DNA of 64,000 nucleotides from an uncultured bacterium. GTDB lineage: Bacteria > JAUVQV01 > CAWCAY01. Position 1 is the first letter of the stretch. Every line of letters begins with the position of its first letter. Where the stretch lies: positions 113,295 through 177,294 of the forward strand of contig CAWCAY010000004.1 of assembly GCA_963793725.1 (NCBI GenBank), in the 5' to 3' direction. The notes under the pieces were generated by a model. It had not been told where the DNA came from. It did not search any database and worked only from the letters and a program-made list of their open reading frames with translations. Shown here in pieces: positions 5,573-25,315 of this stretch. The position numbers and the translations under genes are program-made.

Positions 5573-6490
5573 ATGGCCACGAGTCCTCCTCGGCACTTCG
5601 CGGGCGGCCTGAAGCTCCTCCCACCGCTGGCGATCGTGGCGGCGTGGGGCCTGTCGTACGCCGCCATCCGCGCGGCCGTCCGGGAGATCCCCCCGTTCAC
5701 GCTGGCCTTCCTCCGCTTCCTGCTGGCCGCGCTCGTCGTCTGGCCGATCTACCGGAGGGGGGAGCGGCGTGCAATCATGCCCGGCGACCGGTGGGGGCTC
5801 CTGCTGCTCGGCCTGACCGGGGTGACCCTCTACTTCGCCTTCGAGAACACCGGCCTGCAGTACACCACCGCCTCGCACGGGGCGATGATCGCCGCCACCA
5901 TCCCGCTGTGCGTCGAACTTGCCGCGGCCCGGGCCAAGGGGCGCCGGCTCCCGCGACAGGCGCTGGCGGCGGCCCTGGTCGCCCTGGTGGGCGTCTTCAT
6001 CCTGGTCCGGCCGGGCTCCGGGGAGGGGGCCTCGCTCATCGGGGACCTGCTGATGTTCGGCGCGGTCGCCTCGTGGGTGGCCTACACCTTCCTGGCCGAG
6101 CGCGTCGCCGGCCGCTACCCCGGTTTCCAAGTGACCCACGTCATCCAACTGATCGGCGTGGCCAGTTTCCTGCCGGGCGCGCTGGTCGAGACGTTCCTTC
6201 GCCCCTGGCGCTGGCCGTCGGCGGCCGCGTGGGGCGGGGTGGCCTTCCTGGGCATCTTCTGCACGGCCATGGCCTACCACGTCTGGAACCGGGCCATCGC
6301 CGACCTGGGCGTGACCACCGCCTCGAACCTCCTCTACGGCGTGCCGGTGGTGGGCGTGCTCGGCGGGGTGGTGTTGCTCCACGAGCCGTTCACCCCGTCG
6401 CTGGCCCTGGGGTCGGCGCTGATCCTGGCCGGGGTGATCTGGGCCAACCGGGCCGCCCACTTCACCGGGGTCCATGGGGTCAGGTCTTGA
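5573..6490 (+). CDS. EamA/DMT family transporter
   Basis: 305 aa, about 10 hydrophobic segments, PPFTLAFLRF and GLQYTTAS motifs, two-repeat DMT architecture. Confidence 0.92.
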   Translation: MATSPPRHFAGGLKLLPPLAIVAAWGLSYAAIRAAVREIPPFTLAFLRFLLAALVVWPIYRRGERRAIMPGDRWGLLLLGLTGVTLYFAFENTGLQYTTASHGAMIAATIPLCVELAAARAKGRRLPRQALAAALVALVGVFILVRPGSGEGASLIGDLLMFGAVASWVAYTFLAERVAGRYPGFQVTHVIQLIGVASFLPGALVETFLRPWRWPSAAAWGGVAFLGIFCTAMAYHVWNRAIADLGVTTASNLLYGVPVVGVLGGVVLLHEPFTPSLALGSALILAGVIWANRAAHFTGVHGVRS

Positions 6491-6524
6491 AAGAAAGCAA
6501 TGTGTGTTTTCAAGACCTGACCCC
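6476..6524. repeat. Perfect 17-bp inverted repeat (REP-like palindrome / possible terminator)
   Basis: GGGGTCAGGTCTTGAAA (6476-6492), 15-nt loop, TTTCAAGACCTGACCCC (6508-6524); contains the EamA stop codon. Confidence 0.85.
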
Positions 6525-6530
6525 TCCTAC

Positions 6531-6560
6531 TTGACGGCCGCCCGGCGCGGGAGATAGGAT
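6531..6560 (+). promoter_or_regulatory. Putative sigma70 promoter for the membrane protein / CHASE2 cyclase genes
   Basis: TTGACG (6531-6536), 18 bp, TAGGAT (6555-6560). Confidence 0.4.
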
Positions 6561-6607
6561 CGGCCAGGCGGGCCATTTCCGGATGCGCCGGAGAAGGCCG
6601 CCGACAG

Positions 6608-6994
6608 ATGTCGCAACGGGGAGGCGGGAGCATGGCCCGAGTGGCGCGCGGCACGGTCGTCACGGTGGCGTTCTTCATCCTCGCCAGCTACTTCCTCTGG
6701 ATGGCCTGGCCGCTGCTTCCGATACTGTGCGTAATGATGCCGCTGAGCATGCTCATCCCCACCCGCGGGTGGACACGCGCGCGGGCCGTGTGGCTGACCG
6801 TGGGGGGGCTCCTGATGGCCACCTCGTCGGCCGGCATCGTCAGGTTCCGGTTGGTCACCGGGGAGCCATGGGCACGCTTCGCGATCATCATGGGCGCGGT
6901 GGTGGCCCTGGTCGCCGCGGCGGCGATCAGCGAGTGGCGCCGCCGGGACCCGGCCCCGCCCGCCCCCGCGGAGCCGTCCGGCGGGCCGGCCTGA
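6608..6994 (+). CDS. Small hypothetical membrane protein (about 4 TM; start may be ATG 6632)
   Basis: Hydrophobic ORF lying cleanly between EamA and the cyclase; GGAG before ATG 6632. Confidence 0.6.
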   Translation: MSQRGGGSMARVARGTVVTVAFFILASYFLWMAWPLLPILCVMMPLSMLIPTRGWTRARAVWLTVGGLLMATSSAGIVRFRLVTGEPWARFAIIMGAVVALVAAAAISEWRRRDPAPPAPAEPSGGPA

Positions 6995-7004
6995 GCCGCT
7001 CCCG

Positions 7005-8819
7005 ATGAGGAACAGGCGCTACCGCACCTTCATCACCGGCTACACCATCGCCGTCATCGTCCTGTCGGTCTTCTTCTGCTACACCCAGCCGAGCCTGCTG
7101 GAACGCATCGAGGAGCGGCTCTACGACCTTCGCTGCCGGGCGTTCCGGGGCACCACCACCCCTTCCGGGCGCATCGCCATCGTGGCCATCGACGACCGGA
7201 GCATCGCCGAGCTGGGGCGCTTCCCCTGGTCGAGGAGCGAGAACGCCCGGCTGGTCGACCAGGCGGCCAAGGCGGGCGCTCGGGCGGTGCTGTTCGACGT
7301 CGTCTTCCCCGAGTCGGAGTCGGCCGAGGCCGACGGGCGGTTCGCCGAGTCGATGCGCCGGTTCGGCAGGGTCACGCTGGCCACGGCCTTCGACGTGGCG
7401 CCCGACGGCAAGAGCCTGGTGAAGGTCGTCAACATCCCGGTTCTGGCCGGGGCTGCCCGGCGCGAGGCGCACATCAACATCCTGCCCGACGACGACGGCG
7501 TCCTGCGATGGAGCCGGCTGCTGGTCGAATACGAGGGGCGCTTCTTCCCGTCGATGGGGCTGGCCGCGGCCATGGACGCCCTGGGCGCGGACGACTTCAA
7601 GCCGGCCGGCTCGTCGGTGGTCGTCGGGCCGGTGACCGTGCCGACCACCTCCACCGGCTACCGCACCCGGTATCGCTACCTGATCACCTACAGCGGCGGG
7701 CCGGGGACCTTCAAGCGTTACTCGTTCGCCGACGTGGCCGCCGGCAGGCTGCCGCCGGGGGAGCTTGCCGGGAAGGTGCTGCTGGTCGGCTCGACCGCCC
7801 TGGCCGTCTACGACATGCGGGTCACCCCGTACTCGAACAACTCCCCCGGGGTGGAGGTCAACGCCAACGTTGCCGAGAGCATCCTCCAGCGCAACTTCAT
7901 CCAGCGGGGCACGGTCGAGGCGCTGATCGACCTGCTGGCCATCGTCGTGATCGCCATGGTGGTCGCCCTTTCGGCCGCCGGCCTGCGGGCGGGGGCCGCC
8001 TTCCCGATAGCCGTATCGATGATGGGGTTGTTCGCCGCCCTGGCCAGCGCCCTGTTCAGCCGGGGGATGTGGGTGTCGCTCGTCTACCCGCTCTTCGCCG
8101 GCGGCCTGGTGTACGCCGGGGTGTCCTACTTCCGCTTCATGCTGCTCGACCGCCGGGCGCGGGAGATCCGGACCATCTTCTCCAGCTATGTCTCCCGGAA
8201 GCTGGTCGAGCAACTGGTGGCCAATCCCGAACTGGCCCGGGTCGGCGGGGAGATCCGGGTGATCACCGTTGTATTCAGTGATGTCAAGAACTATACTTCG
8301 TACAGCGAGGGGCGCACGCCGCAGGAGGTAGTCAAGATACTCAACGAGTACCTGGCGGCAATGACCGCGGTCATCATGGACCATGACGGCACCCTCGACA
8401 AGTTCCTCGGGGACGGCATCCTGGCCTTCTGGGGGGCGCCCGTTCCGCAGGAGAAGCATGCCGAACTGGCTGTGCGCTGCGTGTTGGCCATGATCGAGCG
8501 GCTGGGCGAGCTGCAGAAGAAGTGGACCGCCGAGGGGAGCGAGCCATTGTCGTTCGGCGTCGGCATCAATACCGGCGAGGTGATCGTCGGCAACATCGGC
8601 GCCGAGGGGCTGAAGATGGAATACACGGTGATCGGCGACAACGTGAACCTAACCTACCGCATCCAGAACGAGAGCCGCGAGCACGACTGCCCGGCGATGA
8701 CCGAGTCGACATGGGAGCTGGTCAAGGACATTGTCGAAGCCGACCTGATCGGCCCGGTGACGGTCAAGGGGAAGACCAGGCCGGTGGTCATCTATGGACT
8801 GCGGGGGCTGAAACGATGA
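7005..8819 (+). CDS. CHASE2-domain class III adenylate cyclase
   Basis: CHASE2 (IAIVAIDDRSIAELGRFPWSR; PGVEVNAN), three TMs, cyclase motifs FSDVKNYTSYSE, DKFLGDGI, EYTVIGDNVNLTYR. K plus T/D specificity residues suggest ATP substrate. Confidence 0.93.
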   Translation: MRNRRYRTFITGYTIAVIVLSVFFCYTQPSLLERIEERLYDLRCRAFRGTTTPSGRIAIVAIDDRSIAELGRFPWSRSENARLVDQAAKAGARAVLFDVVFPESESAEADGRFAESMRRFGRVTLATAFDVAPDGKSLVKVVNIPVLAGAARREAHINILPDDDGVLRWSRLLVEYEGRFFPSMGLAAAMDALGADDFKPAGSSVVVGPVTVPTTSTGYRTRYRYLITYSGGPGTFKRYSFADVAAGRLPPGELAGKVLLVGSTALAVYDMRVTPYSNNSPGVEVNANVAESILQRNFIQRGTVEALIDLLAIVVIAMVVALSAAGLRAGAAFPIAVSMMGLFAALASALFSRGMWVSLVYPLFAGGLVYAGVSYFRFMLLDRRAREIRTIFSSYVSRKLVEQLVANPELARVGGEIRVITVVFSDVKNYTSYSEGRTPQEVVKILNEYLAAMTAVIMDHDGTLDKFLGDGILAFWGAPVPQEKHAELAVRCVLAMIERLGELQKKWTAEGSEPLSFGVGINTGEVIVGNIGAEGLKMEYTVIGDNVNLTYRIQNESREHDCPAMTESTWELVKDIVEADLIGPVTVKGKTRPVVIYGLRGLKR

Positions 8820-11800
8820 GCGCCGCTGTCGCGAGGAGTGCGGACCGGATGGGGCGCCTGCTGGTCGCGGCCGCCCTGCTGGCCGCGGCCGTCCCCGCCG
8901 GGGCGGTCTCGAGGGTCGACCTGGTCGGCCTGGTGCCTGCCGGCAAGCCGGTGGCCGTGGCCGTGGACGACGCCTTCCGCATCTACGCCGCCCAGGAGGA
9001 CGACGGCACGGTCTGGGTCCTCACCGACCAGGGGACCCTGCTGATGAAGCTGGGCGGCAAGGATGCCGCCGGCAAGCCGATCCTCAAGAAGCCGAGCCGC
9101 ATCAGCGTCGCCGGCGACCGTGTCTACGTGTCCGACTCGTCGCTCGACCGCATCGCCGTCTTCTCCCGCGAGGGGGCCTACATCGAATCGATCGGCAACG
9201 GCAGCGGCAACAAGTCCTTCAGCAGTCCCCGGGGCGTCCTGGTGCACGGCGGGGTCATCTACGTGGCCGACACCGGCAACGACCGGGTCCAGATCCTGGG
9301 ACCCAACGGCGTCTTCATGGAGAGCATCCAGAAGCTGCCGCTGCAGGACCCGCTGGGCGAGCCGATCGACGTCGCCGTGACCGCCGGGGGATCGGTGGTG
9401 GTCCTGGACAACAAGATCCGCGCGATCAGGACTTTCAATTCGCGCGGGGAGCCGACGTCCCGGTTCGCCTCGTTCGACGATCCGGTCGGCCTGGCCGCGG
9501 ACGCGGAAGGGGTGTACGTGGCCGACGCCGGCCGTTACCGTCTCTTCAAGTACTCCTACGACGGCAAGGAGATCTTCGCCTTCGGCTCGAAGGGGAAGGA
9601 GAAGGGGCAGTTCCTGGGCGACATCACCGGGGTGGCCCTCGACGCCGAGGGGCGCGTGTACGTCAGCGACGTCGACAAGGGGATGGTGATGATCTTCCGG
9701 CCGGACCGGGCCGCCGTCGAGGCCGGGGTGGTCGCCCCGCCCCAGGCGGTCAGGTGGCTCGGCACGGTGGCCGACGTCCCGGTAGGCGAGGTCACCTGGG
9801 GGAGCGACGGCAAGCTGTACGCCGTCTCATCCAAGGGGGATGCGGTGCTGGTGATTTCCGGCGGGCAGATCGAGCGGACGATACCCGTCCCCAAGACCGA
9901 CCTGGCCTCCGTGGCCCGGGACGCCCAGGGGGGGCTGTGGGTCGTGGACGGCAAGAAGGAGCGGGTCCTGCTGGTCGACGACGCGGGCAAGACGGCCCGG
10001 CAGATCTCGGCCGCGGGCAGCAAGGAGGGCTACCTGGACGAGCCGGCCGACCTGGCCATCAACAGCAAGGGGGTCCTCTTCGTCGCCGACCGGGGGAACA
10101 ACCGGGTGCAGGCCTTCAGTCCCGACGGGCTCTGCCTCCAGATCCTCAACCGTGACCGGACGCCGTCCGGGCCGCCGGAGCCGTTGGCGGTGGCCGTCGA
10201 CCCGGAGGACAATCTCTTCATTCTCGACCGGCTGAGCCGGACGGTCACCATGTACTCCGCCGACGGCCGCCTCACGGGGCGTTTCGGCGGCGAGAAGGTG
10301 TTCGAGAAACCGGTGTCGCTGGCGGTCACCCGGCAGGAGATCTTCGTCCTGGACGGCGCCGGCGAGGTGAAGATCTTCGCCAAGAACGGCGACTACCTCC
10401 GCCGTTTCGCGTCCCGCGGCACCGGCCGGGGCGACCTGATGGAGCCGGAATCCATTGCCGTCAAGAGCGACACCGAAATCCTGGTGTCGGACACCGGCAA
10501 TGGGCAGGTCGATCTCTTCGGCATCGTCTACACTCCCGGCGTGCCCGTGGAGCTGGCCGCCCGGCCGGGGATGCGATCGGCCAGCCTGACCTGGACGAGG
10601 AATTCGGAGGCCTACGTCGGCGAGTACCGCGTCTACCGTGCCGTTACCGGCGGCCGCCCGGAACTGCTCGGCGCGGTCACCACCAACACCTACCAGGACA
10701 ACGGCCTCGAGCCCGAGACGACCTACGAATACTCCGTCTCGGCGGTTGCCCGGGACGGCAACGAGGGGGGGCGCAGCCTGATCGTCGAGGCGGTCCCCAG
10801 CCGCCTGATGGCCGCGACGCCCTCCGGTCTCACGGCGTCGACCACCGAGGAGGTGGTCACGCTTTCCTGGGCGCCCAACGCCGAGCCGCATGTCCGGGAG
10901 TACCGCGTCTACCGGGAGACCGACGGCATCCCCCGGCAAATCGGCGCGCTGGCCGGCACCGGCTTCGAGGACAAGGGTCTGGAGACCGAGACGGGCTACG
11001 TCTACCACCTGACGGCGGTCAGCACCGACGGGGTCGAGAGCGGCCGGGCGACCGTCAAGGCGATGACCAAGGCGCCCACCAAGCCGCCGATCGAGATCGA
11101 CATCGTCAACCTGAGCAACGTCTTCTCCAACTCGTACAAGATCTACGAGACGGAGGGGATCGGCCGGATCCGCCTGGTCAACAACACCGTCGACCGGATC
11201 TCGCGCCTCAAGATCTCCTTCACCATGCAGAACTTCATGGACTTCCCCTGGGAGGTGACCGTCGAGGACGTCCCGCCGGGCGCCGGCCCGGAAATCCCGC
11301 TGAAGGCGGTGTTCAACAACAGGATTCTCGAGGTTTCCGAGGACACGCCGGTCCAGATCGAGGTCAAGGTGACCTACTTCCGCAGCCAGCGGCCGATCAC
11401 CATCACCCGCAGCCACACCGTCAACGTCTTCGACAAGCACCGGATGATGTGGGACACCAAGGACCGGTTCGCCGCCTTCATCACCCCCAAGGACCCGCCG
11501 ATCATCGAGTTCGGCCGGTCGGTGGCGGTCCTGTATCCGGAGGCCGACAACCCGCTCGTCTCGGCCGGGGTGCTGTTCGAGGCCCTGGGCGCCCGCGGCA
11601 TGATGTACATCGCCGACCCGAGCAACCCCTACCAGATCGTCTCCGAGAAGGCCGACACGGTCGACTACATCCAGTACCCGCAGGAGACGCTGAAGCGCAA
11701 CAGCGGCGACTGCGACGACCTGGTGGCCCTGTACGCCTCGATCCTCGAAAGCCTCGGCATCCGGGCCATCGTGCTGGACGTGCCGGGGCACATGTTCATG

Positions 11801-13088: not shown

Positions 13089-13117
13089 TTGACACAAATA
13101 AAATGCTTTTTTACATT
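13089..13117 (+). promoter_or_regulatory. Putative sigma70 promoter of the nuo operon
   Basis: TTGACA (13089-13094), 17-bp AT-rich spacer, TACATT (13112-13117), upstream of nuoA. Confidence 0.7.
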
Positions 13118-13172
13118 GGGGCTCTGAATATCAGGCGTTGAATCCGGACAGACGACGAAGGAGGCCGGCCCG

Positions 13173-13538
13173 ATGAACGAAACCGCGGCGCGATTTGGCC
13201 CGGTGGGACTCTTCCTGGTCATCGCTCCGATCATGGGGATGATCTTCCTTTCCATCGGCGCCCTCTTCCGTCCCCACCGGCCGACCCGCGAGAAGTCGCT
13301 GCCGTACGAGTGCGGCATGGACAAGGCGGACGACCCCAACCGCCCCCACCACCCGCGGTTCGCCTTCATGGCCATGCTGCTGGTCCTGTTCGACGTCGAG
13401 GCGGCCTTCCTCGTCCCCTGGGCGCTGGGCGCTCGCGAGCTGGGGGTGCGGGGGCTGGTGGTGATGATCCTCTTCCTGGCGGTTCTCTTCGTCGGGTATG
13501 CCTACCTCTGGCGGCGGGGAGACCTGGAGTGGGACTGA
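13173..13538 (+). CDS. nuoA: NADH-quinone oxidoreductase subunit A
   Basis: [22 protein letters not shown]-terminal GDLEWD. Confidence 0.95.
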
Positions 13539-14011
13539 CCGACTACAAGACCCGCGAGGGGGGCGCCATCCTGACTTCCGTGGCCCAGGTGATCAACTGG
13601 TGCCGCGGGTCGTCGGTCTTTCCGCTCACCTACGGCCTGGCCTGCTGCGCCATCGAGATGATGCACACTTCCACGTCGCGCTACGACATCTCCCGCTTCG
13701 GTTCGGAGGCCTTCCGGCCGTCGCCGCGCCAGGCCGACATGATGATCGTGGCCGGAACGGTGACCCACAAGATGGCCCCGCACCTGCGCCGGCTGTACGA
13801 GCAGATGCCCGACCCCAAGGTGGTCCTGGCGATGGGGAGCTGCGCCACCACCGGCGGAGGCTTCCGCACCTACAGCACCCTCCAGGGGGTCGACCGGATC
13901 GTGCCGGTCGACGTCTACGTGGAAGGCTGTCCGCCGCGCCCGGAGAACCTGCTCAAGGGACTGATGGAGATCCAGGCGCTGATCAAGTCCCGAAAGACCC
14001 TCGGGTGGTGA
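13529..14011 (+). CDS. nuoB: NADH-quinone oxidoreductase subunit B
   Basis: GTG start overlapping nuoA; [36 protein letters not shown]. Confidence 0.95.
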
Positions 14012-14502
14012 GCTTGCCGGCCGACCCGAAGCGTCTGGCGGTGCTCGAGAACCTTGTATCCGGGCGGCTGGCGTCCATGGAGGCCAGCCTGGTCCTGTGC
14101 GGCGACGACCCCTGCCTCGACCTCTCCCCCGCCTGCTGGCGCGAGGCGGCCCGGGTGATCCGGGACGACCCCTCGGCGGGCTACACCGCCTTCTGCTGCC
14201 TGACCGGGATCGACCGCCACCCGCTGCAGCCCCGATTCGAGATTCTCTGCCACCTCCGCTCGCCGGACGCGAGGGACCGCCTGGTGCTGCGGACGCGCGT
14301 CCCGGAGTCGGCTCCGTCCGTCCCGTCGCTGGCCGGGATATGGAAGGGGGCCGAGTGGTACGAGCGCGAGGCCTTCGACCTCCTCGGCATCGACTTCGCC
14401 GGCCACCCCGACCTCCGGCGGATCATGATGCCGGCAGGCTACCAGGGGCACCCGCTGCGCAAGGACTTCCCCCTCGAAGGGGACACCGAGGGGGCCCGAT
14501 GA
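14008..14502 (+). CDS. nuoC: NADH-quinone oxidoreductase subunit C
   Basis: [23 protein letters not shown]...GHPLRKDFP; GTGA overlap with nuoB. Confidence 0.93.
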
Positions 14503-15668
14503 AAGGCCGGAACCTGACCATCAACATGGGGCCGCAGCACCCCAGCACCCACGGCGTGCTGCGCTTGGTGGTCGAGCTCGACGGCGAGAAGGTGGTCCGG
14601 GCGGTGCCCGACGTGGGCTTCCTGCACCGGGGGATCGAGAAGCTGGCCGAGCACCGCACCTGGGAGCAGTTCCTGCCGTTCACCGACCGGCTCGACTACG
14701 TGGCCGCGTCGGCCGGCAACCTGGCCTACTGCCTGGCGGTGGAGAAGCTGATGGCCATGGATGTGCCCCGCCGCGCCTCCTGGATCAGGGTCATGCTGGC
14801 CGAGGTGGCCCGCATCTCGTCGCACCTCATCTGGCTAGGCAGCAGTTGCCTCGACCTCGGCGCCATGGCCCCGATGTTCTACGCCTTCGCCGACCGGGAA
14901 CGAACCTGGGACCTGTTCGAGATGTCGGGCGGCGCCCGCATGACCCACTCCTTCATGCGCCTCGGGGGCCTGCGCAACGACCTCGACGCCGCCACGCTGC
15001 GGGCCTTCGGCGAATTCTGCGACTACTTCCCGTCGAGCATCGACCGGTTCGAGGAGCTGCTGACCAACAACCCGCTCTTCCGCTCCCGGACGATCGGCAT
15101 CGGCCGCATGGACGGGGCCGAGATGCTGAACCGGGGGGTGACCGGGCCGATAGCCCGCGCCTCGGGCGTCGACTGGGACCTGCGCCGCGACGATCCCTAT
15201 GCCGCCTACGGCGAGATGAGCTTCGAGGTGCCCCTCGGCCGGTCGGGCGACGTCTACGACCGCTACCTGGTCAGGATGGCCGAGATGCGCCAGAGCGTCA
15301 GGATCATCCGCCAGGTGCTCGACGGTCTGCCGGAGGGGGACTGGCGCTCGCGGGACCCCCGCTACGTCCGGCCGTCCAAGGAGGACGCCCTGAATTACGT
15401 AGAGGCGATGACCCGCTACTTCTACCTGGCCGCCGAGGGGCCCGCCCCGCCGGCCGGGGAAGCCTACGCCGCGGTCGAGGCCCCCAAGGGGGAGTTCGGG
15501 TTCTACGTCAAGAGCGACGGCACCGCCTACCCCGCCCGGGTCAAGATCAGGACGCCCAGCTTCGCCAACCTGGCCGCCCTGCCGGCCATGATCCAGGGCC
15601 TCTACCTGTCCGACGTGGTGGCCGTCATCGGCAGCATCGACATCGTCCTGGGAGAGGTGGACCGCTGA
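14499..15668 (+). CDS. nuoD: NADH-quinone oxidoreductase subunit D
   Basis: NMGPQHPSTHGVLRL, GFLHRGIEK, RLDY, EAPKGE, C-terminal IDIVLGEVDR. Confidence 0.96.
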   Translation: MKGRNLTINMGPQHPSTHGVLRLVVELDGEKVVRAVPDVGFLHRGIEKLAEHRTWEQFLPFTDRLDYVAASAGNLAYCLAVEKLMAMDVPRRASWIRVMLAEVARISSHLIWLGSSCLDLGAMAPMFYAFADRERTWDLFEMSGGARMTHSFMRLGGLRNDLDAATLRAFGEFCDYFPSSIDRFEELLTNNPLFRSRTIGIGRMDGAEMLNRGVTGPIARASGVDWDLRRDDPYAAYGEMSFEVPLGRSGDVYDRYLVRMAEMRQSVRIIRQVLDGLPEGDWRSRDPRYVRPSKEDALNYVEAMTRYFYLAAEGPAPPAGEAYAAVEAPKGEFGFYVKSDGTAYPARVKIRTPSFANLAALPAMIQGLYLSDVVAVIGSIDIVLGEVDR

Positions 15669-16138
15669 TGGCCACCCTCAAGCCGGGCACCGTCCGCCGC
15701 CTGGAGGAGCTCTTCGGCGACTTCCGGGACCGTCCCTCGGCCCTCATCCCGGCGCTCTACATCGTCCAGGAGGAGGAGAACCACCTGACCAGCGACAACC
15801 TGTCGGCCTTGGCCGACCTGCTCGACATGCCCAAGTCGTCGGTCTACGAGACGGCCACCTTCTACTCGCTCTACTCCTTCACCCTCCAGGGAAGGCACGT
15901 CATCCGCCTCTGCCGGAGCATCTGCTGCTGGCTCAACGGCAGCGACGCGCTGGAGGAGGCGGTCAGGGCTTCCTTGGGGATCGGCTTCGAGCAGGTCACC
16001 CCCGACGGGCGTTTCGTCCTGAAGCATTCCGAGTGCCTGGCGGCCTGCGACCGGGCGCCGGCCATCCAGGTGGACGACCGGATCTTCGGGCCGGTGACCC
16101 CGGCGGACATCCCCGGCATCCTGGAGGAGTTCCCGTGA
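15668..16138 (+). CDS. nuoE: NADH-quinone oxidoreductase subunit E
   Basis: ATFYSLY, CRSICC...ECLAAC 2Fe-2S ligands. Confidence 0.93.
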   Translation: MATLKPGTVRRLEELFGDFRDRPSALIPALYIVQEEENHLTSDNLSALADLLDMPKSSVYETATFYSLYSFTLQGRHVIRLCRSICCWLNGSDALEEAVRASLGIGFEQVTPDGRFVLKHSECLAACDRAPAIQVDDRIFGPVTPADIPGILEEFP

Positions 16139-17409
16139 CCGACCAGTTCTTCGTCGCCTACCGGGACATCGACGCGCCGGGGATAGGCGCCCTCGACGGC
16201 TACGAGCGCCACCGGGGGTACCAGGCGCTGCGCCAGGTGCTGACCACGATGACCCCCGAGGACGTCATCGAGACGATCAAGCGCTCCCGCCTCCACGGCC
16301 GGGGCGGGGCGGCCTTCCCGACCGGGCTCAAGTGGGAGTTCGTCTTCCAGGACCACAAGACCCCCAAGTACGTCGTCTGCAACGCCGAGGAGGGGGAGCC
16401 GGGGACCTTCAAGGACCGACCGATACTGGAGCGCGTCCCCCACCGGCTGGTGGAGGCGATGATCATCGCCGGGTACGCCATCGGCGCGCGGCGCGGGTAC
16501 GCCGTCTTCCGGGGAGAGTTCATCGGCCCGGCCGCCTCGGTCCGGAAGGCCATCGCCGAGGCAAAGGCAGCGGGGTACCTGGGCGAGAACATCCTCGGCT
16601 CCGGCTTCTCGTACGACCTCCAGGTCTACCGCACTGCCGGCGCCTACATCTGCGGCGAGGAGACGGCCCTGCTGGAGGCTCTCGAGGGACGCGCCGGGCT
16701 GGTCCGCATCCGGCCGCCGTTCCCGGTCAATGCCGGCCTCTGGGCGCGCCCGACGGTCCTCAACAACGTCGAGACCTTCGCCAACGTGCCCGACATCATC
16801 CTCAACGGGCCCGAGTGGTTCGCCCAGCGCGGGACGGACAAGTTCCCCGGGACGAAGATCTACTGCCTGTCGGGGCACGTCAACCGCCCCGGCATCTACG
16901 AGTTTCCCGCCGGCATCACGCTGCGGGAGCTGATCTACGAGCACGGCGGGGGCATCCCCGGAGGGCGGAAGATCAAGGCGGTCTTCCCCGGCGGGGCTTC
17001 CAGCTCCTGCCTGACGCCCGAGTCGCTCGACATCGTGCTCGACTATGCCTCGGTGGCCGTGGCCGGGTCGATGCTGGGCTCCGGGGCGATCATCGTGTGC
17101 GACGAGTCCACCTGCATGGTGGCCGCGGCGCGCCGGCTAGCCTCGTTCTTCAGGCACGAGTCGTGCGGCAAGTGCATCCCCTGCCGCGAGGGGACCGAGC
17201 ACATCCACCGGACCCTCACCCGGATCACCGAAGGGCAGGGGACGATGGGCGACGTCGACAACCTGGTGGACCTCTGCCAGATCATCCGCCAGACCGCTTT
17301 CTGCGGCCTGGGGCAGGCGGCCGTCAACCCCGTCCTGTCGACCGTCAAGCACTTCAGGCAGGAGTACGAGGACCACTGCTCCGGGAGGGGGTGCCGCCAT
17401 GGCGGCTGA
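16135..17409 (+). CDS. nuoF: NADH-quinone oxidoreductase subunit F
   Basis: GRGGAAFPTGLKW, EPGTFKDR, AYICGEETAL, ESCGKCIPCREG. Confidence 0.95.
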   Translation: MTDQFFVAYRDIDAPGIGALDGYERHRGYQALRQVLTTMTPEDVIETIKRSRLHGRGGAAFPTGLKWEFVFQDHKTPKYVVCNAEEGEPGTFKDRPILERVPHRLVEAMIIAGYAIGARRGYAVFRGEFIGPAASVRKAIAEAKAAGYLGENILGSGFSYDLQVYRTAGAYICGEETALLEALEGRAGLVRIRPPFPVNAGLWARPTVLNNVETFANVPDIILNGPEWFAQRGTDKFPGTKIYCLSGHVNRPGIYEFPAGITLRELIYEHGGGIPGGRKIKAVFPGGASSSCLTPESLDIVLDYASVAVAGSMLGSGAIIVCDESTCMVAAARRLASFFRHESCGKCIPCREGTEHIHRTLTRITEGQGTMGDVDNLVDLCQIIRQTAFCGLGQAAVNPVLSTVKHFRQEYEDHCSGRGCRHGG

Positions 17410-19787
17410 CAAGACCACCCTCCGCGTGACCATCGACGGCATCGCCCTCGACGTCGAGCGGGGGACCACCATCCTGACCGCCGCCCGCGAGGCCGGCGTG
17501 GAGATCCCCACCCTCTGCTGGCACCCCAAGGTGAGCATCATGGGCGCCTGCCGGGTCTGCCTTGTGGAAGTCGAGGGGCTCAACAAGCTGATCGCCGCCT
17601 GCCACACGCCGGTGGCCGAGGGGATGGTCGTGCGGACGGCCACCCCGCTGATCCGCAAGGTCCGCCAGACCCTGTTCGAGCTGCTGCTGGCCCGGCACCC
17701 GAGCGACTGCTGGGGGTGCGACAAGGGGGGATGGTGCGACCTGCAGGCGCTGGCCTTCAAGTTCGGCCCCGAGCGGCACCGCTTCGAGCTGCCGCGCGTG
17801 GCCAGCCGGGTCGAGGACCGAAGCCCCTTCGTCGAGCGGGATACCCGCAAGTGCGTCATGTGCCGCCGCTGCATCCGGGTCTGCCGCGAGGTCCGGGGGA
17901 CGTCGGTCTGGGGGGCCATGTACCGCGGCTTCGACAAGAAGATCTGCACCTTCTTCGAGCAACCGCTGGGGAGCGACTTCCACGACCCCTTCAACTGCGA
18001 GTTCTGCGGCTCGTGCATCGACATCTGCCCGGTGGGCGCGCTGACCGCCAAGCCGTCCAAGTACAAGACCAGGCCGTGGGAGGTCGAGACGGCCGAGACC
18101 TCCTGCCCCTTCTGCGGCGTCGGATGCCGGATGACCGCCCACCACCGCCGGGGCGTCGCTGGTCAAGACCACCCCGGTGAAGTACCCCGACGGCAACCAC
18201 TCCGACCTCTGCTTTCGGGGCCGCTTCGGGACGATCTACGCCGCCCACCCGTCGCGCCTGACCGGGCCCAGATGGGGACGGGGTGGCGGACCGGAGGGCA
18301 ATCCCGCCCGAGAAGGCCGCGGCCGCCCTGGCCGCCGTCCTGGCCTCGGCCGGCACGCCCGGCGCGGCCTTTGTCGGCGCCCAGTCGACCGAAGAGGAGA
18401 CGGCCGCCCTGGCCTCGCTGATGGCCTCGGGCTCGGTGCCCCACCCGGTCTTCGTGCTCGATTCGCGCGGGGAAGCCGAAACCGGCGAGCCCGCATGGCC
18501 GGCGGGAGTTCGGAGCGACACCGTCGACGAACTGGCGACCGCCCGGCGCATCATCCTGATCGGCCATGATTTCACCTTCCACCACCCGGTGGCCGGCATC
18601 CGGGTTCGCAAGGCCCTCCAGGCGGGCGGAACCCTGCTGCTGGTCGATCCGCTCGACACCTTGTTGGGGAGGCAGGCGGCGGCCTGGCTGCGCGTCCCAC
18701 CCTCGTCACAGGCGGCCCTGGTCGAGCAGCTCCGGGATGAGTTGGTTTCGGCCGGCGGGGCCTCCGCCCTGGCCGGCTTCCTCGAGTCGGTTCCCGGCGG
18801 CGGGGGCGAATCCGGCGGCAAGGCGGCCGAGTGGCTCAGGGGAGAGGGGCCGCTGACGCTGGTCATCCAGAAGATCCCCGGTCAGTCGGCCGCGGTGAAC
18901 AGTGCCGCGGCCCGCCTGCTCGAGGCTGCCGGCGGCGGGAGCGTGGTCTATCTCACGCCGGACGCCGACGCCTTCGGCGCTGCGGTGATTGCCAGGGGAG
19001 CGGGACCGGCCGTCGACGAACGGGCGCTGGAGCGATCTCCTCGCTTCGGACCGGCGCGTGCCGGCGGTCTTCTTCCTGCGGGCCGATCCGCTGGGCGAGA
19101 GCGCCCGGGCCGACCTCTGGGAGGCGCTGCGGCGCCGGTCGACCACCTGGGTGGTGTTCGACTCGTTCCCAACCCGCACCGCGACCCAGGCCGACTTGGT
19201 GCTGCCGGTGCCGCTGTTCACCGAGAACGGCGGGGAGCATCCGGGCGGCCGGCGGCCCCGGCTCGTTCACCCGCCTGTACCAGCCGCCGGCGGGCGTGCG
19301 CGACATGCTATCATGGGCCGGGAGTGCCGCGGCGGCGCTCGGCAAGGGCCTCGCCTGGGACGGCGGCGCGGCCGGCCTGGACGACATCCGGGCCAGGGGG
19401 AGGCGGGTCGGGCAGGCTCCCCCGGCGCCGGTTGCTCCGGCGGCGATCTGCCGGGGCGGGGAATCCTTCTGGCTCTTCGCGCGCTTCCACCGTTTCCCCG
19501 GCCATCGACTGGAACTGGCCGAGGCCCGGGCGGTCATCGGCCCGCAGGAGTGCCTGGAGGTGCACCCGGCCGACGCGGGAGCCATGGGCCTGCTGGACGG
19601 GGAACGGGTGACGGTCGAGGCAAGCGGCGCATCGGCGGCGTTCGCCGTGCGGGTGACGCCGCGCACGCCCCCGGGGTGCCTCTGCCTGCCGTTCGACCCG
19701 TCGTTCGGCGAGGTCATCCGATTCATGAGAGCCCTCGGGCCCGGTTTCGTCTCCGGCGGCGCGGCCGTATCCGCGAGAAAGGGGTGA
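17399..19787 (+). CDS. nuoG: NADH-quinone oxidoreductase subunit G; about four apparent frameshifts (near 18160, 18290, 19030, 19250)
   Basis: N-terminal Fe-S motifs (IPTLCWH, CRVCLVE, HPSDCWGCD, CVMCRRC, CEFCGSCIDICP, CPFCGVGC...CFRGRFG). Molybdopterin-fold remnants (TATQADLVLP; EVHPADA) are spread over successive frames. Confidence 0.85.
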
Positions 19788-19788
19788 G

Positions 19789-20265
19789 GTGATGTACAGG
19801 AAGGAACTGCTGCGGAAGATAACCTTCTTCGAGGGACTCTCCGACCAGGAACTCGACCAGCTGGTTGCCGCCACCGAAACCATCGTCTGCCAGAAGGGCG
19901 AGGCGGTCTACTCCGAGGACAAGGGGGGCTCGTCCCTGTTCATCATCGTCCGCGGGATGGTCCGGATCACCAAGGTGGTCACCTTCGACGAGAAGCAGAC
20001 CCTCACTCGTCTCCGCCCGGGCGAATTCTTCGGCGAGATGTCGTTCATCGATGGCCACCAGCACTCGGCCACCGCCGAGGCGGTCGAGGAGACCGAACTG
20101 GTCGTGCTGAGCCGCTCCAGGTTCGACCGGGTGGCGGAGGCGAACCCCGACCTGGCCTACAAGGTGATGATGCGCCTCGCGCTGCAGCTCTCGATGCTGC
20201 TGCGCAAGATGGACGAGCGGTTCGTGGAGATGGTCAACTACATATGGGGGAAGGGCAAGGTCTGA
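19789..20265 (+). CDS. Stand-alone cyclic-nucleotide-binding domain protein (no HTH) inside the nuo operon
   Basis: 158 aa; FFEGLSDQEL, GEAVYSE, LFIIVRGMV, PGEFFGEMSFIDGHQHSATAEA; stop overlaps the nuoH ATG. Confidence 0.9.
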   Translation: MMYRKELLRKITFFEGLSDQELDQLVAATETIVCQKGEAVYSEDKGGSSLFIIVRGMVRITKVVTFDEKQTLTRLRPGEFFGEMSFIDGHQHSATAEAVEETELVVLSRSRFDRVAEANPDLAYKVMMRLALQLSMLLRKMDERFVEMVNYIWGKGKV

Positions 20266-21222
20266 TGACAGTCGTCCTGCTGGCGGTCAAGATCCTGGTG
20301 CTGATCGTCCTGGTCCTGCTGGGGGCGGCCTACGTCCTCCTGGCCGAACGGCGCCTGCTGAGCCGCTTCCAGATGCGCATCGGGCCCAACCGGTGCGGCC
20401 CCCTGGGATTGGTCCAACCGCTGGCCGACGCGGCCAAGCTGATGGGCAAGGAGTTCCTCGTGCCCGACGGCGCCGACCGGTTCCTCTTCCGGCTGGCGCC
20501 GGTCCTGGCCATGGTGTCCGCCTTCGGCGTCTATGCTTTCATCCCCCTCGGGCCGGGGCTGATGATCTCCGACGTCAACACCGCGCTGCTGATGCTCCTG
20601 GCCGTCTCCTCCATGGGGGTCTACGCGATCGTCCTGGGGGGGACCTCCTCCAACAACTCCTTCTCCGCCATGGGCGCCCTGCGCTCGGCCGCCCAGATGA
20701 TCAGCTACGAGGTGTCGCTGGTGCTGGCCGCCATGGGCGCGGTGACCGGCGCCTCGTCGCTCAGCCTGCGGGAGATCGTCGACTACCAGAGCGAACTCCC
20801 GATGGTGGTCAGGGAGCCGGCCACTATCCTGTCGATGCTGGTCTTCTTCATCGCCGCCATGGCCGAGACCAACCGCACCCCGTTCGACCTGCCCGAAGCC
20901 GAGAGCGAACTGGTCGGCGGCTACCACACCGAGTACACCGCCATGGGCTTCGGCCTCTTCTTCCTGGGCGAGTACACCAACATCATCACCGTCTGCCTGC
21001 TGACCTCGATCCTCTTCCTGGGCGGCTGGCACGGGCCCGGCGCCCGACGGCATCTGGTGGCTGCTGGCCAAGGCGGTGCCGTTGATATTCGTCTTCATCT
21101 GGGCCCGGGGGACCATGCTCCGCTTCCGGTACGACAAGCTCATGGCCTTCGGGTGGAAGTTTCTGCTGCCGCTTTCGGCCGCGGCCCTGGTCCTGGAAGG
21201 GGCCTGGAAGGTGCTGAGGTAG
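20265..21222 (+). CDS. nuoH: NADH-quinone oxidoreductase subunit H; one apparent frameshift near 21045
   Basis: ERRLLSRFQMRIGPN, QPLADAAKL, ETNRTPFDLPEAESELVGGY. After the shift: RFRYDKLMAFGWKFLLPLS, stop TAG 21220-21222. Confidence 0.92.
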
Positions 21223-21228: not shown

Positions 21229-21642
21229 ATGGTGGGCGAAATCATCAAGGGCTTCTGGATCACGCTGCGGACCTTCTTCGGGCCGCCGATCACCGTCAGC
21301 TACCCGGAGGAGCGGCGCCCGGTTTCGCGGGGGTACCGCGGTGTCCCGTCGTTGCGCCGCCACCCGGACGGCCGCGAGCGGTGCGTGGCCTGCACGCTGT
21401 GCGTCAGAATCTGCCCGGCCCGCTGTATCGAAATGACCACCGGCGAGGGGCCAGACGGGGCCAAATACCCGTTCGAGTACCGGATCGACGCGGGGCGCTG
21501 CCTCTACTGTGGGCTGTGCGCCGAGGTCTGCCCGGTCGAGGCGGTGGTCCTTTCGTCGAGCTACGAGTTCACCGTCAGGGACCGCCGCGGCGCAATCCTC
21601 GACAAGGAGGCCCTGCTGGCCCTCGGGGAGAAGGAGCGATGA
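21229..21642 (+). CDS. nuoI: NADH-quinone oxidoreductase subunit I
   Basis: Two CxxCxxCxxxCP motifs (CVACTLCVRICP; CLYCGLCAEVCP). Confidence 0.95.
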   Translation: MVGEIIKGFWITLRTFFGPPITVSYPEERRPVSRGYRGVPSLRRHPDGRERCVACTLCVRICPARCIEMTTGEGPDGAKYPFEYRIDAGRCLYCGLCAEVCPVEAVVLSSSYEFTVRDRRGAILDKEALLALGEKER

Positions 21643-22142
21643 TCGCCGCCGTCTTCACGCTGCTGGCGCTGGCGGCCATCGGTTCGTCGCTGATGACCGT
21701 CCTTTCGAGGCGCATCTTCTACGGGGCGCTGTACCTGCTGGTGTCGATGCTGGCCACGGCCGGCATCTTCGTCCTGCTGGGGGCCGAGTTCCTGGCCGCC
21801 GTCCAGGTGCTCATCTACGCCGGCTCGGTCATGGTGCTGTTCGTCTTCGTGCTGATGACGGTCGGGTTCCGGGAGGAGAGCCGCGAGCCGCGGGGCCCCG
21901 GCTGGTGGGCCACGCTGCTGGGCCTGGGCGGGCTGATCCTGTGGCAGCTCATCGCCGCGGTGCGCTCGCTGGACGGGGGCGGGGAGTGCGCCGGGGTGCT
22001 GCCGACGCCCCCCGGGGACACCACCCGGGCCATGGCCGACATCCTCTTCGGCGAGCGGCTGGTCGCCCTGGAAGTCGTGTCTTTGCTGATCCTGGCGGTC
22101 ATGGTCGGCATCGCCGCCCTGCGGCGGGAGGAGCGCCGGTGA
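21639..22142 (+). CDS. nuoJ: NADH-quinone oxidoreductase subunit J
   Basis: AEFLAAVQVLIYAGSVMVLFVF. Confidence 0.93.
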   Translation: MIAAVFTLLALAAIGSSLMTVLSRRIFYGALYLLVSMLATAGIFVLLGAEFLAAVQVLIYAGSVMVLFVFVLMTVGFREESREPRGPGWWATLLGLGGLILWQLIAAVRSLDGGGECAGVLPTPPGDTTRAMADILFGERLVALEVVSLLILAVMVGIAALRREERR

Positions 22143-22450
22143 TCCCCCTGTCGTGGTGCCTCGTCCTGGGCGCGGTCCTGTTCGCCATCGGTTTCCTGGG
22201 CGTGGTCCTGCGGCGCAACGGCCTGTCGATGCTCCTGGCGGTCGAGATCATGGTCAACGCCGCCAACCTGAACCTGGTCGCGTTCGCCACGACCTGGGGG
22301 CTGATCGAGGGGCAGACCCTGGTCCTCTTCATCATCGGCGTCGAGGCGGCCGAACTGGCCGCGGCGCTCGCGGTGGTGACCGCCTGGCGGCGGCTCACCG
22401 GGGAGAACGAATTGGACGCCGCCCATTCCCTGAGGGACGAACATGAGTGA
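22139..22450 (+). CDS. nuoK: NADH-quinone oxidoreductase subunit K
   Basis: RRN...VEIMVNAANLNL...AAELA; about 100 aa, 3 TM. Confidence 0.93.
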   Translation: MIPLSWCLVLGAVLFAIGFLGVVLRRNGLSMLLAVEIMVNAANLNLVAFATTWGLIEGQTLVLFIIGVEAAELAAALAVVTAWRRLTGENELDAAHSLRDEHE

Positions 22451-23918
22451 CGGCTTCCCGCTGCTGACGCTGTTGCTCTTCCTGCCGCTTGCGGGCGGGC
22501 TGGCGGTGGCCTGCATTCCCGGGCGCTTGGAAAGGCTGGCCACGGGGGCGGCGACGGCCGTCTCGCTGGCGGCCCTGGGGCTCGGCCTGGCGGCGGCCGG
22601 CCGTTTCGACGCCGCCTCGGGCATCGGGCCGGTCGAGCGGTTCGACTGGATCCCGCGCTTCGGCATCGCCTTCCACCTCGGGCTCGACGGGCTGTCGCTG
22701 GCCCTGGTCCTGCTGACGCTCTTCCTGGTCCCCTTCGCCCTGTCGGGCGCCGCCGCAGGGTCGGCCGGCGGGCGCAGCCGTTTCCTCGGCCTGATGCTCG
22801 CCCTGGAAACCGGGCTCCTGGGCGTCTTCATGGCCCGCGACCTGGTCCTCTTCTACCTCTTCTGGGAGACGATGCTCATCCCGGCCTACTTCCTGCTGGG
22901 CGTGTGGGGCGGGCGCCACCGGGTCCGGGCGACCACCCGGTTCATGATCTACACCATAGCCGGCAGCCTGTTGATGCTGGTCGGCATCATGGTCCTGTAC
23001 GTCCGCCAGACCGCCCAGGGCGGGTGGGGGACGTTCGACATGGAGGTCCTGGCGGGGTCCGCCGCCGGCGCCGCCGCCCCCTGGGCGTTCCTCCTCTTCG
23101 CCGTCGCCTTTGCCGTCAAGACGCCCGTCTTCCCTTTCCACTCCTGGCTGGCCGACGCCTACGTCGAGGCGCCGACCGGGCTGTCGATGCTGATGTCGGG
23201 AGTGATGGCCAAGATGGGCGTCTACGGCTTCCTGCGCGTCTGCCTGCCCCTCTTCCCCGGCGAGGCCCGCCGCTACGCCGCCGTGGCCATGGCCCTGGCG
23301 CTGGCCGGCGCCCTGTGGGGAGCCCTGATGGCCCTCGCCCAGCGCGACCTCAAGCGGCTGATCGCCTGGTCGAGCTTCTCGCACATGGGCTTCATCACGC
23401 TGGGCGTCTTCAGCCTGACCGAGTCCGGGATCACCGGGGCCTCCTTCCAGATGGTGAGCCACGGCCTTACGACCGGCGGGCTCTTCCTGGCGGCCTCGTG
23501 CCTCTCCCGGGGCGGTGGCGGGATCGAATCGCTGGCCGCCGGCCCGGCGGGGGGCCGCCGCGGCGGGGCGCTGCTGACCTTCTTCGCCCTGGCCTCCCTG
23601 GGCATGCCCGGCACGGCCTCGTTCATCGGCGAGTTCCTGATCGTCGCCGGGGCCTTCAGGGCCGGCGCCTGGACGGGTCTCGTCGCCTGCATGGCGGTGG
23701 CCATGGGCGCCTGGTACATGCTCCGCCTGCTTCGCCGGGGCGTCTACCAGCCGCCCAAGCCGGTGGTTCACGGGGAGGTCGATCTGACCGCTCGGGAAAC
23801 GGCGCTCCTGGTCGTCCTGGGCATTGCCCTGGTCGTCCTGGGCGTGTTCCCCGGCGTCCTGACGGCCATCCTGCACGCCGCCACCGCGGGCATCCTGGCT
23901 GCCGTGGGAGGGGCCTGA
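22443..23918 (+). CDS. nuoM: NADH-quinone oxidoreductase subunit M
   Basis: DWIPRFGI, LGLDGLS, FYLFWETMLIP, VKTPVFPFHSWL, KMGVYG, SHMG, GEFL; 491 aa, no long C-terminal transverse helix. Confidence 0.9.
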   Translation: MSDGFPLLTLLLFLPLAGGLAVACIPGRLERLATGAATAVSLAALGLGLAAAGRFDAASGIGPVERFDWIPRFGIAFHLGLDGLSLALVLLTLFLVPFALSGAAAGSAGGRSRFLGLMLALETGLLGVFMARDLVLFYLFWETMLIPAYFLLGVWGGRHRVRATTRFMIYTIAGSLLMLVGIMVLYVRQTAQGGWGTFDMEVLAGSAAGAAAPWAFLLFAVAFAVKTPVFPFHSWLADAYVEAPTGLSMLMSGVMAKMGVYGFLRVCLPLFPGEARRYAAVAMALALAGALWGALMALAQRDLKRLIAWSSFSHMGFITLGVFSLTESGITGASFQMVSHGLTTGGLFLAASCLSRGGGGIESLAAGPAGGRRGGALLTFFALASLGMPGTASFIGEFLIVAGAFRAGAWTGLVACMAVAMGAWYMLRLLRRGVYQPPKPVVHGEVDLTARETALLVVLGIALVVLGVFPGVLTAILHAATAGILAAVGGA

Positions 23919-23920
23919 CC

Positions 23921-25315
23921 GTGCACGCCTACCTGCCGGAAGTCGTCGTCGCCGCCGGCGCCCTGGCCATCCTCGCCTGGGGCGCCATCCGGCCGTCACG
24001 CACCGGCCCGGGGGTCTCCTTCATGGCCCTGGCGGCGCTGACCGCCGGGGTGCTGACCATGATCATGCCCGGCCTCGCGGGCGGGGGGGGCGCGTCGCTG
24101 CCGGGCGGGGCCTTCATCTACCGGGTGACCATCCTGTTCGCCGCCTCGCTGACCGTCTTCCTGTCCCACGAGTATGTGCTCGTGTCGCTGATGCCGGCCA
24201 CCGAATACTACGTCCTGCTGCTCCTCTCCACGGTGGGCATGATGCTGGTCTCCGGGGCCGCCGACTATCTGGTCTTCTTCCTCGGCCTCGAGTTGATGAG
24301 CCTGCCGCTGGTGCTGATGTGCGCCATCGGCAGGGGATCGTCGGCCCCCAAGGAGGCGGCGGTCAAGTACCTCCTCTACGGCCTGACCGCGTCGGCGGTG
24401 CTGCTGTTCGGTTTGACCATGATCTACGGCATCCAGGGCTCGTGGGAACTGGATGGAGGGGATTTCAGCGCCGGTGGGGCCGCCGCGGCCGTCGCCCTGG
24501 TGCTGGTCCTGGTGGGCCTGAGCTTCAAGATGGGCCTGGTCCCGTTCCACATGTGGATGCCCGACGTCCTGTCCGGCAGCCCGGCGCCGGTGGCCTCGTT
24601 CATCGCCACCGGGTCCAAGGTGGCCGTGTTCGCCTTTGCCGGGCGGGCGCTCACAACCTCGCTGGGGGATCTTTCGCCGGTCTGGTTCACGATACTCCAA
24701 GTGACGGCAGTGGCCTCGATGCTGTGGGGGAACCTGGCCGCCCTGGCGCAGCGCGACGTCAAGAGGCTCATGGCCTACTCGGGGGTCGCCCACGCCGGCT
24801 ACCTGGCGGTGGCTTTGCTGGCCGCCGACCGCCTGCCGGAGGAAAGCCTGGCCAGCCTCGGGTTCTACCTCTTCGCCTACGTCTTCCTGACCGCCGGCTG
24901 CTTCGCCCTCTTCGCGGCCATCGAGACGCCGGGCGAGCGGTTGACGACCGACCGGCTCGCCGGCCTGGGCCGCCGGCACCCGGTTGTCGGCGCGGCCATG
25001 GCCCTGTTCCTGTTCGGCCTGGCCGGCCTGCCGCCGACCTCCGGCTTCATGGCCAAGTTCTGGATCTTCCTGGCGGCCGTCCACGCCGACCTGACCTGGC
25101 TGGCCGTCGTCGGCGTCGTCGCCTCGGCCATCGGCGCCGTCTACTACCTCCGCCTGGTGCGGATCATCTTCATGGACCAGCCTTCCGGTGCGACCCCCCC
25201 GGTGGTGCCCGGAATCGGCGTCTTCGCCCTCCTTCTGGCCGTGCTGGCCACCATCTGGCTGGGAGTGATGCCCGGCCGCTTCCTGGAGTTCATCCGCTTC
25301 ACCACCCATCCATGA
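23921..25315 (+). CDS. nuoN: NADH-quinone oxidoreductase subunit N
   Basis: GLELMSLPL, EAAVKY, FKMGLVPFHMWMPDV, KRLMAYSGVAHAGY, GLPPTSGFMAKF. Confidence 0.92.
   Translation: MHAYLPEVVVAAGALAILAWGAIRPSRTGPGVSFMALAALTAGVLTMIMPGLAGGGGASLPGGAFIYRVTILFAASLTVFLSHEYVLVSLMPATEYYVLLLLSTVGMMLVSGAADYLVFFLGLELMSLPLVLMCAIGRGSSAPKEAAVKYLLYGLTASAVLLFGLTMIYGIQGSWELDGGDFSAGGAAAAVALVLVLVGLSFKMGLVPFHMWMPDVLSGSPAPVASFIATGSKVAVFAFAGRALTTSLGDLSPVWFTILQVTAVASMLWGNLAALAQRDVKRLMAYSGVAHAGYLAVALLAADRLPEESLASLGFYLFAYVFLTAGCFALFAAIETPGERLTTDRLAGLGRRHPVVGAAMALFLFGLAGLPPTSGFMAKFWIFLAAVHADLTWLAVVGVVASAIGAVYYLRLVRIIFMDQPSGATPPVVPGIGVFALLLAVLATIWLGVMPGRFLEFIRFTTHP

Follow-up and report, generated by a model that had tools for sequence, protein, structure and literature searches.

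In the 64,000-nucleotide stretch of DNA analysed here (called the window below; contig CAWCAY010000004.1 of the assembly GCA_963793725.1 from an uncultured bacterium), the operon encoding the respiratory complex I (nuo) passes directly from nuoK to nuoM. Probably, nuoL has been lost from an otherwise canonical 14-gene operon, and the complex is completed by A-s-B, a separately encoded module of two antiporter-like proteins (A and B) with a small protein (s) between them. The source is a metagenome-assembled genome (MAG) comprising 11 contigs and 3.14 Mb, with a CheckM-type completeness score of 77%; the organism is present in freshwater-sediment samples.

The nuo operon and the missing nuoL

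The window harbors one complex I operon on its + strand: nuoA–G, a gene for a cyclic nucleotide monophosphate (cNMP)-binding protein, nuoH–K, nuoM, and nuoN, with aroE directly 3' of nuoN. The ATG of nuoM and the stop of nuoK overlap by 8 nucleotides (junction sequence ...GAACATGAGTGAC...; in the window sequence, the overlap reads ...CATGAGTGA...). Neither a nuoL gene nor a remnant of it was found between nuoK and nuoN/aroE, where a gene of 1.9 kb would not fit. The products of nuoM and nuoN score above the cut-offs of their own models and far under the NuoL model; their translations contain the residue motifs named in an earlier reading of the sequence (the original prediction), i.e., FWE, VKTP, and KMG in NuoM and LELMS and FKMG in NuoN. 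The central claim of that prediction, the direct overlap of nuoK and nuoM without nuoL, is borne out by the gene calls, the profile scores, and the junction sequence. Thus, the operon deviates from canonical NDH-1, which comprises all of nuoA–N with nuoL between nuoK and nuoM. The features of the operon (window coordinates, all on the + strand) are:

13173..13538, +: nuoA (95% identity in tblastn to the intact protein of the sister assembly; PF00507 in the sister locus)
13529..14011, +: nuoB (tblastn with the sister-assembly protein; PF01058 in the sister locus)
14005..14502, +: nuoC (tblastn with the sister-assembly protein; PF00329 in the sister locus)
14499..15668, +: nuoD (tblastn with the sister-assembly protein; PF00346 in the sister locus)
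15668..16138, +: nuoE (tblastn with the sister-assembly protein; PF01257 in the sister locus)
16135..17409, +: nuoF (tblastn with the sister-assembly protein; PF01512 in the sister locus)
17399..19787, +: nuoG, five frame pieces (tblastn; switches of frame in the G+C content at third codon positions, GC3); the copy in L086 is intact, 794 amino acids (aa)
19789..20265, +: stand-alone cNMP-binding protein of 158 aa in the nuoG/nuoH interval (CRP-type effector domain; PF00027 in sister loci)
20265..21222, +: nuoH, two frame pieces with a 1-base insertion at 21042 (tblastn); the copy in L086 is intact, 318 aa
21229..21642, +: nuoI (open reading frame (ORF) call; tblastn)
21639..22142, +: nuoJ (NF005168, 90.6 bits; tblastn)
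22139 (GTG)..22450 (TGA), +: nuoK (NF004320, 85.5 bits)
22443..22450, +: nuoK/nuoM overlap, ATGAGTGA, the slot of nuoL or the A-s-B module in other genomes
22443 (ATG)..23918, +: nuoM (TIGR01972, 450 bits vs. a cut-off of 264)
23915..25315, +: nuoN (TIGR01770, 355 bits vs. a cut-off of 333)

The same nuoL-less order, A–G, (cNMP gene), H–K, M, N, recurs in five other assemblies (L086, L087, L088, L175, and one JGI contig), whose NuoM proteins are 46–96% identical to the window copy (L087, 54%; L088, 48%; L175, 47%; the JGI contig, 46%); the downstream synteny of aroE, pilB, pilT, and pilC is also kept in nuoL-less relatives. L086, an independent short-read assembly with 94.7% identity to the window, is collinear with it over 11.7 kb, and the alignment contains only gaps of 1–5 bp (23 gap columns in 19 openings). 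The inspection of reads over the nuoK/nuoM junction, suggested in the original prediction as a safeguard against mis-assembly, was carried out with Logan contigs: those of three runs span positions 22443–22450 with no gap or joint (X1, 22293–22536; X2, 22241–22755; X3, 22304–22454) and display no collapsed nuoL. The nuoL-less operon is an old trait of this lineage and not an artefact.

The A-s-B module

When the whole assembly was searched in six frames with TIGR01974, the NuoL model (cut-off 407.5 bits), only NuoM, NuoN, A, and B were returned, all below the cut-off; the full A and B proteins score 191 and 151 bits, respectively. Hence, no canonical NuoL was found in the assembly, nor was the same-clade orphan nuoL that the original prediction had named as a refuting finding. 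The suggestion that NuoL comes from another part of the genome or from a second nuo or Mrp cluster is nearest to the evidence, although what was found is the A/B pair with a small subunit and not a nuoL of the same clade. The module lies outside the window, and promoter-like regions precede both A and nuoA:

Contig C3 (G000:C3), ~904,555-907,975, minus strand: three-gene module A-s-B (the nuo operon is on contig C4)
G000:C3, ~907,976-908,040, minus strand: promoter upstream of A (AT-rich, sigma-70-like, TTGACC-17-TTAGCT)
Window 13090-13172: promoter upstream of nuoA (AT-rich, sigma-70-like, TTGACA-17-TACATT)

The proteins A and B were read by stitching over frame breaks and with the aid of intact orthologues from sister assemblies. 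Protein A (485–493 aa) is antiporter-like and devoid of a lateral helix; its core, NuoL/MrpA-like, is the best match to the canonical NuoL core in the genome, and its clade groups with canonical NuoL. Its match to PF00662 is faint, and its score against NF006236 (putative cation/H+ antiporter subunit D, PRK08375.1-1), obtained with the sequence stitched over the frame break, is 662.4 bits at a cut-off of 663. The protein s (80 aa) possesses two predicted membrane helices and has no family match.

In protein B (583 aa), an MrpD-like core is followed by the NuoL-type transmembrane helix (TM) 15, a lateral helix of ~75 residues, and TM16. The query, stitched over the frame breaks (the intact sister protein is P0121), scored 712 bits against NF009310 (Na+/H+ antiporter subunit D, PRK12668; cut-off 564), covering positions 5–581 of 584. 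In an alignment with five canonical NuoL proteins, B matches over TM15, the lateral helix, and TM16 up to the C-terminus, with no extension, and shares with them the lateral-helix motif D..IDG.V.G...LR..Q.G. The AlphaFold model of B (predicted local distance difference test score, pLDDT, 77) places TM15 at residues 448–467, a long helix, modelled at a low pLDDT of ~50, at 483–556, and TM16 at 561–582. The top Foldseek matches of this model are NdhF, MrpA, and NuoL; no solved structure of a close B homologue was found. By this alignment, the model, and the structural matches, B, and not A, belongs to the NuoL/MrpA architectural class hallmarked by TM15, a long lateral amphipathic helix, and TM16. 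The predicted pump residues E122, K224, H268, K357, and K390 are invariant in the B family.

Association of the module with the nuoL-less operon

The nuoL-less operon and the stand-alone module occur together in all four samples where this can be checked, i.e., in this genome, GCA_936421825.1 (loci L087/L092), SRR34261239 (L088/L177), and JGI 3300037851 (L175/L178). In none of them is the module situated between nuoK and nuoM: it resides on C3 and the operon on C4 in this genome, and the same split is displayed by L087/L092, L088/L177, and L175/L178. In every copy seen, A-s-B adjoins a gene of the metallo-beta-lactamase fold (Lactamase_B_2) and, in three, a poly(A) polymerase gene.

According to tblastn, each nuo gene present occurs once in the assembly, and nuoK is its sole gene of the NuoK/MnhC family (one match to PF00420 above the cut-off). 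No match above the cut-off to MnhB (PF04039) or MnhG (PF03334) was found in the assembly, nor any tblastn match to MrpE, F, G, B, or C; three sets of Mrp queries retrieved only PF00361 genes. Accordingly, the set defining an Mrp antiporter (CPA3), i.e., MrpB, C, E, F, and G, was not found in this genome. A second nuo or hydrogenase set that could donate an L subunit was considered as well, and none was found in the assembly. Since there is a single nuo set and no Mrp core, the Nuo complex is the only known partner of the module in this genome.

The module in other genomes

The B family is large and highly conserved, with 53–60% identity between phyla. Among the 80 species genomes from other phyla that were surveyed for harboring a B homologue, the module is inside nuo operons in 77, usually in the order K-A-(s)-B-M; nuo genes flank it on both sides in 70 of the 80, on one side in seven, and on neither in three. 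The operons bearing it are of several types: 11-subunit operons, operons with the canonical 14-subunit order, and those with the order J-K-...-N-A-...-G. In the Pfam-annotated contexts from Planctomycetota and Elusimicrobia, the order is nuoJ-K-[A]-[small]-[B]-M-N-nuoA-B-C-D-EF-G. The order in L106, a Proteobacteria MAG, D-E-F-G-cNMP-H-I-J-K-A-B-M, equals that of the window's operon with the module in cis. The A, s, and B of this genome are orthologous to the operon-embedded copies.

In the three exceptions (L110, L161, and L171; ~4200-11800 in each), the module terminates an Mrp-type cluster, F, G, B, C, D, A, s, B. The hosts of the Mrp-context copies are Wenzhouxiangella, Desulfamplus, and Desulfurivibrionaceae, plus a relative from the same class as the present genome (L184 7670-12400, genome G004). 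In the two Mrp-context copies inspected (L110 and L184), B has a shortened or diverged lateral helix. In the tree, the Mrp-context copies are scattered among the Nuo-embedded ones, so the module has switched between Mrp and complex I on more than one occasion.

A small protein of 74–96 aa with two membrane helices is encoded between A and B at nearly all loci, in the Nuo and Mrp contexts alike (L089 9766-10008, L092 9102-9386, L094 8718-9008, and ~75 other loci). It bears the motifs H.H ... EDYYD, i.e., a His-x-His motif and, in most lineages, a C-terminal REDYYD, and has no family match; probably, it is an unnamed subunit of the Nuo and Mrp complexes containing A and B.

Evolutionary history

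In the comparison within the class, which comprised five species, the canonical NuoL operons of same-class relatives were the nearest to the operon in question (NuoF, 64–66%; NuoH, 55–57%; NuoK, 57–60% identity); all other operons are more distant (NuoF, at most 53%; NuoH, at most 47%). The phylogeny of NuoM and NuoN, another check proposed from the sequence, groups the lineage with the NuoL-type operons of its same-class relatives: in the NuoM tree, these operons and the nuoL-less clade are sisters, with a support of 96. An approximately unbiased (AU) test does not reject a NuoM clade with the MrpD-type operons (p = 0.30).

In the B tree, the copies of the lineage fall into one clade with a support of 100. 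Its sister group (support 96) consists of copies embedded in complex I operons from Thermodesulfovibrionia, Acidobacteriota, Planctomycetota, and Elusimicrobia, and not of the Mrp copy from the same-class relative. The AU test, with groups named after the tree was viewed, rejects the grouping of the lineage's B with the Mrp-context copies (p = 0.0004). The idea that A-s-B is what is left of an Mrp cluster native to the class (L184, G004) was rejected on the basis of the tree and an AU test in which the group was also named post hoc (p = 0.003).

The simplest history consistent with these sequences would be the vertical inheritance of the nuo operon from a NuoL-bearing ancestor, the lateral gain of a complex-I-type A-s-B, and the loss of nuoL. 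The combination of an unlinked module with an operon of canonical lineage points either to the displacement of nuoL directly from a second locus or to replacement in cis followed by relocation of the module.

Proposed architecture of the complex

By its gene content, with two MrpD-like genes and a small ORF replacing nuoL, this complex I would be classified as MrpD-type ("green"). In the likely arrangement, B would take the place of NuoL, docking on NuoM, so that its lateral helix, being of normal length, would run back over NuoM and NuoN and clamp both, and its TM16 would be anchored near NuoN, NuoJ, and NuoK. A, with its NuoL/MrpA-like core, and s would then extend the membrane arm distally. 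The resulting complex would have four antiporter-like subunits, not two, in the predicted order N-M-B-A, and its proton yield per NADH would probably exceed that of the canonical enzyme by one. The physical association of A, s, and B with the Nuo complex, the order of the subunits, and the stoichiometry are what we infer from the gene content and the predicted folds.

Several observations weigh against the completion of complex I by A-s-B. The binding of the three proteins to the Nuo complex is deduced from sequence and predicted fold, and the module is not exclusive to complex I, being found in Mrp-type clusters as well (L110, L161, L171, and L184). NuoM and NuoN fall with the NuoL-type operons of the class, outside the main clade of MrpD-type operons, which argues against a long co-evolution with the module. 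The spacers of the two promoters hold similar TAAT(A/C)AAA elements conserved over the lineage, but a consensus drawn from the promoters matches six sites genome-wide, which is about the chance level, and the nuoA promoter of the window is not among them; a shared operator did not gain statistical support. Finally, the MAG is 77% complete, so a gene may have remained unassembled.

Alternative explanations

The foremost alternative, rather unlikely but better placed than the others, is a true two-antiporter complex I, with NuoN and NuoM, devoid of the lateral helix and operating at about half the proton stoichiometry, while A-s-B would be an unrelated transporter or serve another partner. The operon is indeed complete and translationally coupled without nuoL, and the E. 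coli variant with nuoL deleted still yields a stable complex pumping at about half the stoichiometry, as discussed in PMC9271201 with reference to earlier work. Moreover, A-s-B has its own promoter-like region and other neighbours, and the module serves a non-Nuo context in Mrp clusters. Yet no stand-alone mode is known for A-s-B, its homologues being located in a Nuo operon (77/80) or an Mrp cluster (3/80), and in a genome with no Mrp core the conserved module would be left without a partner. It is also kept together with the nuoL-less operon in 4/4 samples spanning 46–54% NuoM identity, and B retains a full-length NuoL-type lateral helix, unlike its Mrp-context counterparts in L110 and L184. 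The lower H+/e- ratio put forward in the original prediction for a two-antiporter complex is the less likely reading: docking of A-s-B would bring the number of antiporter-like subunits to four, above the canonical one.

Somewhat more doubtful is the view of A-s-B as a detachable, separately transcribed "gear", whose expression would determine whether a two-pump (NuoN and NuoM) or a four-pump complex is formed. If true, the cell could match its H+/e- stoichiometry, or the force that drives reverse electron flow, to the conditions, the cNMP-binding protein of the operon could share in the control, and a natural complex I of variable stoichiometry would be at hand.

It is improbable that a canonical nuoL persists as an orphan gene in an unassembled part of the genome. 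The incomplete assembly leaves space for it, and split membrane-arm operons do exist, e.g., the nuoL-M-N cluster in L176. Still, the genome is contained in as few as 11 contigs totalling 3.14 Mb, single-base indels depress marker-based completeness estimates, the six-frame hidden Markov model search was without NuoL, and the lineage consistently has A-s-B instead.

The decay of the nuo operon into a pseudogene cluster, with nuoL deleted and nuoG and nuoH frameshifted, is highly improbable, even though the window has nuoG in five frame pieces and two for nuoH. The extra base at 21042 is missing from L086 and from the short-read contigs of two runs; because of this, the nuoH frameshift can most likely be put down to an assembly error and not to decay; pseudogenisation of nuoH was rejected. 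The 1-bp gaps in nuoG (~18154, 18265, 19032, and 19229), which were compared with L086 only, are probably assembly errors, too. Intact nuoG and nuoH are carried by L086, L087, L088, and L175, and the GC3 of the coding frames in the window is at least 0.9. The A and B genes on C3 (904,555-907,975) are broken by single-base indels similar to those in nuoG and nuoH, as expected of consensus errors in long-read assemblies. Such errors probably lower the completeness score of the MAG as well.

A nuoL collapsed at the junction by mis-assembly has virtually no chance of being the explanation and was rejected in view of the junction-spanning contigs from three independent runs, the collinearity with L086, and the same junction in the five other assemblies.

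Comparison with known systems

The replacement of NuoL by two MrpD-like subunits was described by Degli Esposti and Martinez-Romero (2016), as cited in PMC9040806; the MrpD pair in Complex_I_3 of 'Ca. Manganitrophus' represents a further case, and the NuoL-replacing architecture is also known from Yu et al. The present system resembles this "green", or MrpD-type, complex I in the families of A (NF006236) and B (NF009310), in the small ORF between them, in the lack of canonical NuoL, and in the lateral helix and TM16 of B without the 26-aa extension. In contrast to that type, the module here forms its own operon on another contig and is not inserted between nuoK and nuoM; the remaining operon follows the canonical A–N order and groups with the NuoL operons of the same class.

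The canonical 14-subunit NDH-1 operons of the class (G005/L181 and G004/L186) share with the window the gene order and are nearest to it in sequence; the window's operon differs by the lack of nuoL and by the cNMP-binding gene inserted between nuoG and nuoH. The Mrp (CPA3) antiporter clusters with a D-A-s-B set (L110, L161, L171, and L184) have homologues of A, s, and B, arranged in the same way, but also carry MrpE/F/G/B/C and a third D subunit, none of which this genome has.

The 2M complex I of Nitrospira, with a second NuoM and an insertion in the lateral helix of NuoL (Chadwick et al. 2018, as cited in PMC9040806), is similar in that a fourth antiporter-like subunit is predicted; here, however, it is NuoL itself that would be exchanged, and the helix has its normal length. 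The nuoL deletion variant of E. coli also features a complex I operon without nuoL, but it is a laboratory construct with halved pumping and no substitute subunit (PMC9271201), whereas a substitute module is retained in the present lineage.

Overall, the replacement of NuoL by an MrpD-type module is already known; the novelty is its unlinked arrangement with an operon of canonical lineage. In this natural example, a canonical operon has lost the terminal NuoL and the lineage retains a laterally related MrpD-type module at another locus, which bears on two live questions: the proton count of complex I and the way in which antiporter-like modules were added or swapped in evolution. The removal of nuoL together with a module at a second locus supports the plug-in view of the membrane arm. 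For annotation, it is a warning that an absent nuoL need not imply an incomplete or crippled enzyme, and it draws attention to a subunit of MrpD-type complexes that is conserved, 80 aa long, and unnamed. Should the module from the second locus indeed dock, the lineage would be suited for studying the share of the distal subunits in the stoichiometry.

The cNMP-binding gene and other observations

The co-occurrence of the cNMP-binding gene with the loss of nuoL, pointed out in the original prediction, holds as a usual feature of the nuoL-less operons and not as a strict rule. The canonical operons from the same class, L181 and L186, are without this gene, but so is the nuoL-less operon of JGI 3300042731, and L106, with its MrpD pair in cis, has a cNMP gene between nuoG and nuoH (34% identity).

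In three loci from Desulfocapsa/Desulfobulbaceae (L146, L169, and L172), the order is K-M-A-B-N instead of K-A-B-M-N; either the module is located between M and N, or the M and N paralogues were misnamed by best match. Two relatives from the same class (L179 and L180, genomes G003 and G005) harbor a cluster in which two antiporter-like genes accompany NuoB/C/D-like genes, similar to a membrane-bound hydrogenase or an Mbx-type complex; no counterpart of this cluster was found in the present genome. In a Methylomirabilia MAG (L176 4797-9644), canonical nuoL-M-N stand alone with a divergent cation-efflux gene upstream, so this membrane arm is encoded apart from nuoA–K.

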